Source of the DNA: Escherichia coli
GTDB lineage: Bacteria > Pseudomonadota > Gammaproteobacteria > Enterobacterales > Enterobacteriaceae
Length of the DNA: 64,000 bases
NCBI RefSeq assembly: GCF_016026235.1
Contig: NZ_CP065613.1
Direction: 5' to 3' (one strand)
The notes below the pieces were generated by a model. That model searched no databases. It was given only the letters and a program-made list of their open reading frames with translations, and was not told the DNA's origin. Each line of letters opens with the position of its first letter. Position 1 is the first letter of the stretch. Both the position numbers and the translations under genes were made by a program. Positions 19,951 through 55,335 of this stretch are shown one piece after another.

Positions 19951-23063
<3,113 letters not shown>

Positions 23064-23069
23064 TCACAC

Positions 23070-23099
23070 AACATACGAGCCGGACGCATAAAGTGTAAA
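23070..23099 (-). promoter_or_regulatory. lac promoter: -10 TATGTT, 18-bp spacer, -35 TTTACA
   Basis: Reverse complements read at 23070-23075 and 23094-23099. Confidence 0.9.
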
Positions 23100-35981: not shown

Positions 35982-36815
35982 TCAACGCATATTCAGTTTA
36001 TTGGCGTGGTAGGCAATATGCTCGCCAATAAAACTGGAGACAAAATAATAGCTGTGGTCGTAACCCTCGTGATAACGGATTAACGTCTTGATATTCATCT
36101 CCTGGCAGATCTTTTCAAGATTTGGAGTCCGCAGCTGTTCCGCGTAAAAATCATCACTCAACCCCTGATCAACCATGATTTCCGCAACGCGTTGACCTTG
36201 TGAAATAAGACTCACCGGGTCGTAATACAACCAGGCATCTTTATTTTCACCAAGATATGCAGCAAAGGCTTGCTGTCCCCACGGTACTTGCGATGGGGAG
36301 ACAATGGGCGAAAACGCCGAGACGCTGGCATATTCATCTGGGTTACGTAACGCCAGCACCAGCGCGCCCAGCCCGCCCATAGAATGACCAGAGATAGACT
36401 TTTTGGCCGTTGCCGGAAAATGATGCATCACTAAATCCGGCAGCTCGTTGCGGATATAGTCATACATTTTGTAATGTTCATTCCACGGCGCTTGCGTCGC
36501 GTTCAGGTAAAACCCGGCACCTTGCCCGAGATCGTAACGGTCGGCATCTGCGACATGACTGCCTCGCGGACTGGTGTCCGGCGCAACAACAATAATGTTG
36601 TGCTCAGCCGCGTAACGCTGCATCCCCGATTTAGTAATGAAATTCTGCTCGTTGCAGGTCAGGCCTGAAAGCCAGTACAGCACCGGCAATTTTTCATTCG
36701 CGGCTTTTGGTGGGAGATAGACGCCGACATTCATTTCACATTTCAGTGATGCGGAATAATGCCGATACACATTTTGCCAGCCGCCAAAGCTGGCATGTTT
36801 TTCAATGAGTTCCAT
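35982..36815 (-). CDS. frmB: S-formylglutathione hydrolase (esterase D family), 277 aa
   Basis: GHSMGG nucleophile elbow; last gene of frmRAB. Confidence 0.95.
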   Translation of the reverse strand: MELIEKHASFGGWQNVYRHYSASLKCEMNVGVYLPPKAANEKLPVLYWLSGLTCNEQNFITKSGMQRYAAEHNIIVVAPDTSPRGSHVADADRYDLGQGAGFYLNATQAPWNEHYKMYDYIRNELPDLVMHHFPATAKKSISGHSMGGLGALVLALRNPDEYASVSAFSPIVSPSQVPWGQQAFAAYLGENKDAWLYYDPVSLISQGQRVAEIMVDQGLSDDFYAEQLRTPNLEKICQEMNIKTLIRYHEGYDHSYYFVSSFIGEHIAYHANKLNMR

Positions 36816-36907: not shown

Positions 36908-38047
<1,140 letters not shown>

Positions 38048-38051
38048 TCAG

Positions 38052-38327
38052 CTATTTAAGATAGGCACGAACCAGTTCAATAGTGTCGTCAACGGATTGG
38101 CTGACTTCGCGGCTGTAGCAGTCATTTCGGTCAAACGTTTCCCGGATATGGCTTTCAAGCACTTCTGCCATCAGCCCATTAGCCGCGCCCCGAACGGCAG
38201 CGATCTGTTGGAGTATGGCACGGCATTCGGCATCACCCTCCAGCGACCGTTCCAGAGCATCAATCTGCCCTCGAATACGACGAACTCGAGTAAGGACCTT
38301 TTTCTTCTCTTCCGGAGTACTGGGCAT
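38052..38327 (-). CDS. frmR: Formaldehyde-responsive repressor (CsoR/RcnR family), 91 aa
   Basis: Start at [10 protein letters not shown]; small all-helical repressor. Confidence 0.9.
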
Positions 38328-38353
38328 TTCGCACCTCATCATCTGCACGCAAT

Positions 38354-38402
38354 ATACTATAGGGGGGTATGCTATATGTCAATACATACCCCCCTATAGT
38401 AT
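38354..38402. promoter_or_regulatory. Candidate FrmR operator: two perfect 17-bp inverted repeats with G6/C6 tracts
   Basis: ATACTATAGGGGGGTAT at 38354-38370 and ATACCCCCCTATAGTAT at 38386-38402, immediately upstream of frmR. Confidence 0.7.
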
Positions 38403-38445
38403 ATAACACTGGAGAATAATTGTTGTCCGAAGCCTAACCAGGTGA

Positions 38446-38473
38446 ACGGTCCCTCAAGACAGATGGGGACCGT
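38446..38473. other. Hairpin acggtccc/gggaccgt immediately downstream of afuC; possible transcriptional insulator between the afu cluster and the frmR promoter
   Basis: 8-bp stem with 12-nt loop; no clear U-tract on the afu strand. Confidence 0.3.
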
Positions 38474-38486
38474 TTATGTGCTATTT

Positions 38487-39533
38487 TTATGCCGCATCCG
38501 CTAAAACAAACATCCCGTAAGGATGGATTTCGAGGTAATAGTGCTCACCAATATCGGGCTGTAAACGGGTGGCGTTTACTTGTAATAAAATCTCCTGTCC
38601 ATGCCACTCTACGGTCACTTCGTACTGCGGCCCCATGTAGGCGACATGGCGAATAACACAACGCTGACTCTCTTCGCCGTGATTGCTTAAGGTGATGGCT
38701 TCCGGGCGAACGCCGACGGTGCCGCTACCTTGCGCCGGGAAATGCGCCGCGCGCGGCAGGCGATAACCGTAGATATCGACATACTCTTCGCTAAAGTTCG
38801 CCGGGAACAGGTTGGCGTCGCCCATAAAACTTGCCATAAAGCGGGAGGCTGGCTGACGATAGAGCTCCTGCGGTGAGCCAATCTGCATGATGTGACCTTT
38901 ATTCATCACCAGCACAGTGTCGGACACCGCGAAAGCTTCACTTTGATCGTGAGTGACGTAGAGCGACGTGATATTAAACTGCTTTTGCAGCTCGCGGATC
39001 TTATCGCGCATACTGCGGCGCAGGTTGGCATCGAGGTTACTTAACGGCTCATCAAACAGCAGCACCTTTGGCTTGAGGATCAACGCGCGGGCCAGTGCCA
39101 CTCGCTGTTGCTGACCACCGGAAATCTGATCGACATAGCGGTCCTCGAAGCCTTCCAGATCCACCATTGCCAGCGCCTCCTTCACCCGCTGTTTCACTTC
39201 GCTACGCGAGACGCCAAGCATCTTCAGCCCGTAGCCAACGTTTTCACCCAGCGACATATGCGGGAACAGAGCGTATGACTGAAACACCATGCAGATATCG
39301 CGCTGTTGAATGGAACGATGCGTGACATCTTCGCCATCAATAAAAATTTGCCCTTCGCTCGGTTTTTCCAGCCCGGCAACCAGACGCAAAATGGTGGTTT
39401 TGCCACAGCCGGAAGGACCGAGCAGCGTCACCATTTGCCCTTGTGGAATGGTGAGATTGATATTGTCGATAACCGTATTACTGCCGAATCGTTTAGTGAC
39501 GTTGCGCAGTTCAACAAAATTTTTCTGACTCAT
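38487..39533 (-). CDS. afuC: ABC transporter ATP-binding subunit (AfuC/FbpC-type), about 348 aa
   Basis: Walker [13 protein letters not shown] signature [12 protein letters not shown], Walker B LLFDEP; start at MSQKNF, with an alternative ATG at 39545 overlapping the afuB stop. Confidence 0.85.

Positions 39534-54646: not shown

Positions 54647-55335
<689 letters not shown>

Follow-up and report, generated by a model that had tools for sequence, protein, structure and literature searches.

A mirror-image pair of type 1 CsoR/RcnR-family sites is very probably the operator-promoter of frmRAB in Escherichia coli

FrmR is a well-studied formaldehyde sensor, and its tandem type I sites in E. coli K-12 have previously been described as a large inverted repeat (Denby et al. 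2016, PMC5146963, Fig. 6a). In that study FrmR bound a frm promoter fragment with a Kd of ~220 nM, versus ~3600 nM on control DNA, and formaldehyde treatment abolished the binding, as measured by bio-layer interferometry (Denby 2016, PMC5146963). In vitro transcription of frmRAB was inhibited by FrmR and this inhibition was reversed by formaldehyde, and a mechanism based on Pro2-Cys35 methylene bridges was described (Denby 2016, PMC5146963). The centres of the two FrmR sites were placed 31 bp apart, far wider than the spacing of RcnR sites (Denby 2016, PMC5146963). Binding of FrmR to the promoter fragment, repression and its release by formaldehyde have thus been shown in the literature, and the frm double operator and its reading are already known. 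Biosensors for formaldehyde and methanol, as well as work on synthetic methylotrophy, already make use of the frm operator-promoter.

A related system is that of Salmonella, whose promoter has been aligned with that of E. coli and whose FrmR data fit two tetramers per 33-bp site (Osman et al., PMC4528141, PMC5016687). Mutation of one T/A-rich arm of the Salmonella site led to loss of binding (Osman 2016, PMC5016687). In a 2024 study, two ATAC-N9-GTAT sites were placed around the -35 and -10 of the constitutive promoter J23100 (PMC11127321), and with both sites in place and FrmR overexpressed this promoter showed FrmR-dependent repression and a 40-fold induction. The same study described a plasmid reporter carrying the native frm promoter that was not induced by methylglyoxal, and loss of repression when the frm promoter was cut off just upstream of the sites (PMC11127321). 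Given the behaviour of these reporters, the two FrmR sites may not be the whole story. Sort-seq of Pfrm by Rohlhill and colleagues reportedly located two repressor sites of 19 bp each, of which one lies upstream of the -35 and the other overlaps the -10. According to the reviews that cite Rohlhill et al. 2017, critical repressor binding sites were found by this sort-seq and mutations in the palindrome alter promoter strength.

Here, we examined the corresponding locus in a 64,000-nucleotide stretch of E. coli DNA, referred to as the window, whose positions 38000-38800 (801 nt) are 100% identical to sequence of E. coli O145:H28 strain RM12761. The original prediction had claimed a 17-mer and its exact reverse complement, separated by 15 nt, upstream of frmR, and our results agree with this, since ATACTATAGGGGGGTAT lies at 38354-38370 and its exact reverse complement at 38386-38402. 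The symmetry is as perfect as had been proposed, but the arms are longer than claimed, with 20 nt each (38352-38371 and 38385-38404) and 13 nt in between. A G6/C6 tract had been noted in each arm, and both tracts are present, G6 at 38362-38367 and C6 at 38389-38394. The two site centres, at 38362 and 38394, are separated by 32 bp, and the repeat as a whole is centred at 38378. The elements of the operon and of its promoter region are as follows:

35982-36815, minus strand: frmB/fghA, S-formylglutathione hydrolase, operon gene 3
36908-38017, minus strand: frmA, S-(hydroxymethyl)glutathione dehydrogenase, operon gene 2
38052-38327, minus strand: frmR, autoregulated CsoR/RcnR-family formaldehyde sensor
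38334-38337, minus strand: Shine-Dalgarno GAGG, 6 nt ahead of the frmR ATG, read from the sequence
38346-38350, minus strand: predicted transcription start region, placed from the -10 position
38352-38371, minus strand: frmR-proximal arm, including the -10; its core FrmR site, 38354-38370, is ATACCCCCCTATAGTAT on the frmR-sense strand
38354-38359, minus strand: -10 hexamer TAGTAT from the promoter scan, inside the proximal FrmR site
38372-38384, minus strand: asymmetric spacer, holding the -35 TTGACA (38382-38377, minus strand)
38385-38404, minus strand: frmR-distal arm, immediately upstream of the -35; its core FrmR site, 38386-38402, is ATACTATAGGGGGGTAT on the frmR-sense strand

The repeat stands out clearly from the rest of the window. 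With up to three mismatches allowed, the 17-mer ATACTATAGGGGGGTAT matches just two places in the 64 kb, which are the two arms, against a chance expectation of 0.05 matches, and two matches were reached in none of 100 shuffles. The pattern ATAC-N9-GTAT likewise matches only 38354-38370 and 38386-38402 in the whole window. A scan for perfect inverted repeats with spacers of up to 40 nt returned the frm repeat as the longest, followed by repeats with 13-nt arms, and the maximum in 30 composition-preserving shuffles was 12 nt.

Two of these shorter repeats can be described briefly. Second in length among the perfect inverted repeats is the one at 23036-23070, with 13-nt arms (TGTGTGAAATTGT...ACAATTTCACACA). 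It presumably encloses the lac operator O1 (TTGTTATCCGCTCACAA), and its flank appears to be one base off the K-12 sequence, a difference that renders the arms perfect in the window. At 54665-54694, two perfect 13-nt arms enclose a 4-nt loop (TAATGCCCGTCAA ggat TTGACGGGCATTA) and are followed on the minus strand by TTTAGATT; this inverted repeat looks like a putative terminator of a minus-strand gene.

The position of the repeat upstream of frmR was also predicted correctly, as the frmR coding sequence occupies 38327-38052 on the minus strand and its product passes the FrmR equivalog score, with 189.2 bits against NCBIfam model NF008464 (cut-off 133). The same protein reaches 68 bits against the RcnR model, below its cut-off of 138, and along its full length it matches E. 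coli FrmR of known crystal structure (PDB 5LBM) with an E value of 4e-55. The sensory residues Pro2 and Cys35 are present in the translation, as is His60. In the list of open reading frames, the frame of frmR opens with a GTG at 38348, within the promoter/5' UTR (38328-38348). This start is disfavoured because it would extend into the promoter, and the annotated ATG at 38327, with GAGG 6 nt before it, is the plausible frmR start.

On the frmR-sense (minus) strand the layout reads ATAT-ACTATAGGGGGGTAT-G-TATTGACATATAG-C-ATACCCCCCTATAGTAT-ATTGCGTGCAGATGATGAGGTGCGAA-ATG. The only sigma-70-like match in 38000-38700 consists of TTGACA, a 17-nt spacer and TAGTAT, agreeing at 10 of the 12 hexamer positions, and the promoter scan returns an identical promoter for K-12. 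An alternative -10, TATAGT at 38361-38356, likewise lies within the proximal FrmR site. The -35 thus sits between the two sites and the -10 within the proximal one, so that the operator overlaps the core promoter, as expected of a type 1 operator, and the central G/C tracts fall in the range of 3-8 bp that defines type 1 sites of the CsoR/RcnR family (definition from Denby 2016). The predicted start region is consistent with the report of Denby et al., who placed the repeat centre at -29 relative to the predicted start, given a repeat centre at 38378 here. Since the arms are mirror images of each other, the spacer alone sets the direction of the promoter.

Conservation across species was surveyed with one genome per species, in 80 loci encoding FrmR relatives. 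ATAC-N9-GTAT was found within 160 nt upstream of the frmR homologue in 65 of the 80 loci, of which 47 have one site and 18 have two, and it occurred elsewhere in the 80 loci 3 times in 242,588 nt. Conservation upstream of orthologous repressor genes, another hallmark of type 1 operators, is therefore present in 65/80 species loci. The homologue of the proximal site lies ~45 nt ahead of the start codon in most frmR-homologue loci. The consensus of this start-proximal site is ATAC-T-CCCC-TAT-A-GTAT, which has the TACT-N7-AGTA frame of the RcnR site and includes TATAGT, so the overlap between operator and -10 is inherent in the motif. The second site, mostly mirrored, is found in 18/80 loci; a single-site operator is therefore the widespread form, and the double, mirrored layout an elaboration of it in a minority of species.

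A distal site followed by TTGAC and a proximal site with TATAGT was found in nine gammaproteobacterial genera (Escherichia, Pantoea, Edwardsiella, Enterobacter, Providencia, Aeromonas, Serratia, Morganella and Erwinia), with site centres spaced by 32-35 bp. In Erwinia endophytica both sites are in direct rather than mirrored orientation. Across the genera the mirror complementarity between paired sites ranges from 0 to 7 mismatches and the motif itself is retained. A motif that is kept while complementarity varies fits a protein-binding site, not a selected hairpin.

Some of the surveyed frm upstream regions are near-identical to each other. This applies to a Citrobacter MAG, Klebsiella grimontii and Maribrevibacterium, despite the distance between these hosts, and also to an Edwardsiella plasmid, Enterobacter and Morganella, where one copy is plasmid-borne. 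These similarities suggest that the frm cassette may travel on mobile DNA together with its operator. In the group formed by the Citrobacter MAG, K. grimontii and Maribrevibacterium, the core of the distal site has 10 nt instead of 9 (ATAC-N10-GTAT).

Within E. coli, the 92-bp promoter was found in 5415 of 5426 complete genomes, presence being defined as at least 80% aligned at a minimum of 90% identity in each genome. An identity of 99% or more to the window across these 92 bp is reached by just 126 records. Among ten Escherichia sequences compared, the distal arm is unchanged in all ten and the proximal arm in nine, E. albertii carrying one C>T. TTGACA is retained in 9/10 aligned sequences, the exception being FJ_Ec_21, and the adjacent spacer bases carry SNPs. 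The length of the perfect arms depends on the allele, with 19 nt in K-12, 20 nt in the window and 21 nt in strain 504237.

In 10 records the promoter region is 90-95% identical to that of the window, and FJ_Ec_21 (NZ_CP143627.1), the sole one inspected, has a 15-bp spacer that is exactly inverted relative to the K-12-type allele (~344-358, corresponding to 38371-38385 of the window). On its frmR-sense strand, TAT-TCTATATGTCAATGC-ATAC stands in place of TAT-GCATTGACATATAGA-ATAC, which puts the -35 TTGACA on the other strand. Given the mirror symmetry of the arms, this inversion would yield an equivalent promoter facing away from frmR, with the frm -35 lost. The inversion is either a rare palindrome-mediated event or an assembly error. 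As a population-level switch it was rejected, since it is a singleton among 5415 genomes.

The site had also been predicted to abut a sugar-phosphate island, and it does, as homology to island-free E. coli stops at ~38419-38429, 15-25 bp past the distal arm. Two further features belong to this junction:

38419-38429, no strand assigned: core/variable breakpoint; for island-free genomes, megablast homology runs out at query position 420 (38419), and alignments with K-12 and other Escherichia agree
38445-38474, no strand assigned: GC-rich hairpin with 9-nt perfect arms (AACGGTCCC / GGGACCGTT), between the fbpC/afuC stop (38487) and the frm promoter

The operator-promoter lies wholly on the core side of the breakpoint. 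To the right of the breakpoint is the OI-20 island, which has fbpC/afuC, afuB and afuA, a gene resembling uhpC, and genes for a sensor kinase and its paired response regulator; OI-20 carries the AfuABC sugar-phosphate transporter and FusKR (PMC4546632). Sequence beyond the junction is shared by 450 of 5415 genomes. The point ~92-103 nt upstream of the frmR ATG (window 38419-38430) is a recurrent breakpoint in Escherichia, where yaiO is found in K-12 and E. whittamii and OI-20 in the window strain. E. albertii and two further Escherichia lineages are, past this breakpoint, similar to neither the window nor K-12.

It had further been suggested that read-through from the island could interact with frm regulation, which is speculation. 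The terminator scan did not report the 38445-38474 hairpin on either strand. This hairpin has no U-tract on the fbpC-sense strand and its T-rich tail is on the plus strand, antisense to fbpC. Judged from these letters it would resemble no efficient terminator for the island operon, and its role is uncertain. Leaky termination is conceivable from the missing U-tract on the fbpC-sense strand. Any such read-through would not be specific to the island, because K-12 has the co-directional yaiO upstream and the terminator scan is also negative there. A polymerase reading through would be expected to encounter operator-bound FrmR and to transcribe the 20-bp hairpin. Our search found no literature that connects frm transcription to OI-20 or afuC, and the promoter goes unmentioned in a 2026 paper on how uropathogens resist formaldehyde.

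The original prediction had read the repeat as a CsoR/RcnR-type operator, and both the published work on the E. coli promoter and our cross-species motif survey support this. We are highly confident that this palindrome serves frmRAB, an autoregulated operon, as its operator-promoter and is made of two mirror-image type 1 CsoR/RcnR-family sites. Without formaldehyde, FrmR tetramers would sit on both sites, most likely one tetramer per site, and RNA polymerase would be excluded from the promoter. Formaldehyde would then form Pro2-Cys35 methylene bridges between FrmR subunits and remodel the DNA-binding face, upon which FrmR would be released and frmR, frmA and frmB transcribed. A search of the literature and the PDB for an FrmR footprint, EMSA or DNA co-structure returned no base-level footprint and no FrmR-DNA structure, and the PDB matches 5LBM and 5LCY are listed as FrmR protein only, not as DNA complexes. 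The assignment of the E. coli sites rests on motif logic, whole-fragment binding, mutagenesis, sort-seq and site transplant. The present analysis establishes the anatomy of the element, how well it is conserved and that the regulator is FrmR; base-level contacts, stoichiometry at the E. coli sites and the exact transcription start are inferred.

A different stoichiometry is conceivable, in which a single FrmR tetramer bridges both sites by its opposite faces and bends or loops the 32 bp between their centres. This idea was raised by Denby et al. (PMC5146963) on the grounds that the FrmR centres are much wider apart than those of RcnR sites, and the mirrored orientation would suit the opposite faces of one disc-shaped tetramer. 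However, the single site of Salmonella already fits two tetramers (PMC4528141, PMC5016687), 32 bp is very short for a loop, and the variation in spacing among genera (32-35 bp), together with the direct orientation in Erwinia, speaks against a strict geometry, so we consider a bridging tetramer rather unlikely. A role of the palindrome chiefly as nucleic-acid structure, either as a hairpin in RNA, ending or stabilising transcripts of the upstream gene, or as a DNA cruciform, draws on strong predicted folding. The transcript of a read-through event would form a hairpin of ~20 bp, the 161-nt RNA 38330-38490 folds at -64.5 kcal/mol (z = -5.8), the 65-nt region as single-stranded DNA folds at -19.4 kcal/mol (z = -7.0), and the upstream gene (fbpC/afuC here, yaiO in K-12) is co-directional and has no canonical terminator after it. 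But the stem is without a U-tract on either strand, and the predicted frm transcript begins downstream of the palindrome, which would thus be absent from the operon mRNA. Across genera the motif is kept while complementarity of the arms decays (4-7 mismatches) and becomes a direct repeat in Erwinia, and in most species a single site gives no long hairpin, all of which makes a chiefly structural role highly improbable. An intrinsic terminator in particular was rejected, since the loop has 13 nt, no T-run follows the stem on either strand and the terminator scan was negative.

Given the proximity of the island, the repeat could also be a target for recombination or integration connected with the insertion of OI-20, or, given its G tract, a site for another regulator such as RcnR; taken together, we regard these two options as close to negligible. 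For the former, the variable region starts only 15-25 bp away and several upstream contexts join at about the same point in Escherichia, yet the repeat is essentially identical in 5415/5426 E. coli genomes, both in the 450 that carry the island and in those that do not. Its position is on the core side of the breakpoint, and it also precedes frmR homologues whose genomic surroundings are unrelated. Its presence independently of the island excludes an integration site, and the data already suggest that island junctions in other species do not coincide with an frm operator. The TACT-N7-AGTA frame and the G6 tract are common to RcnR sites, but the latter differ in N7 content, orientation and spacing, and an RcnR-type tandem operator does not describe sites that are mirrored, 32 bp apart and have their G tract offset by ATA/TAT. 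Two further readings are conceivable. By analogy with what was proposed for RcnR, full repression by FrmR may need non-specific contact with, or wrapping of, the DNA upstream of the distal site, as hinted by the lost repression of the truncated frm promoter (PMC11127321), possibly with coupling to the island. In the other, the mirror arms may render the -35 spacer invertible and flip the direction of the promoter, as seen in FJ_Ec_21. We consider these two readings jointly to be quite improbable. If the former were true, EHEC-type strains might set basal frmRAB expression differently from K-12, with the OI-20 junction only 15-25 bp from the distal site, or frmRAB might become coupled to sugar-phosphate/fucose signals via afu read-through into the FrmR-bound operator.

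Two FrmR sites overlapping the core promoter of frmRAB remain our preferred reading of the repeat. As a textbook-level operator, the element is of little weight as a discovery. This case does show that a real regulatory site can be recognised from sequence alone.

Comparison with described systems places the locus closest to K-12 Pfrm, which is the same locus, identical in its -35, its -10 and the 17-mer core of either FrmR site, without insertions or deletions. Three SNPs separate it from the window: those at 38371 and 38384 fall in the spacer and that at 38348 downstream of the -10. Through them the perfect arms grow from 19 nt in K-12 to 20 nt in the window. Beyond ~38420 the two differ in content, with OI-20 in the window strain versus yaiO in K-12. 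The frmRA operator of Salmonella Typhimurium is alike in being a type 1 site with a C6 tract in a T/A-rich inverted repeat at the promoter of an autoregulated frmR operon, and its binding needs the flanking repeat and is weakened by formaldehyde (PMC4528141, PMC5016687). It is described as having a single C6 site, studied with a 33-bp probe, whereas in E. coli a mirrored pair is spaced by 32 bp, and unlike that of E. coli the Salmonella frm operon is without frmB (PMC5016687).

The rcnR-rcnA operators of E. coli are bound by a repressor of the same family and likewise come as two sites per promoter, with a G6 tract and the TACT-N7-AGTA frame. By our own count, the centres of the K-12 RcnR sites are 20 bp apart (146-160 and 166-180 of the K-12 locus sequence), and 19 bp is the spacing attributed to RcnR operators in the literature (Iwig and Chivers 2009, as cited in PMC5146963). 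The RcnR sites (TACT-G6-N-AGTA) are direct repeats, in contrast to the FrmR sites, which are mirror images with the -35 between them. The N7 is filled by C4-6 and then TAT in FrmR sites and by G6-7 in RcnR sites, and the effector is formaldehyde for FrmR but Ni/Co for RcnR.
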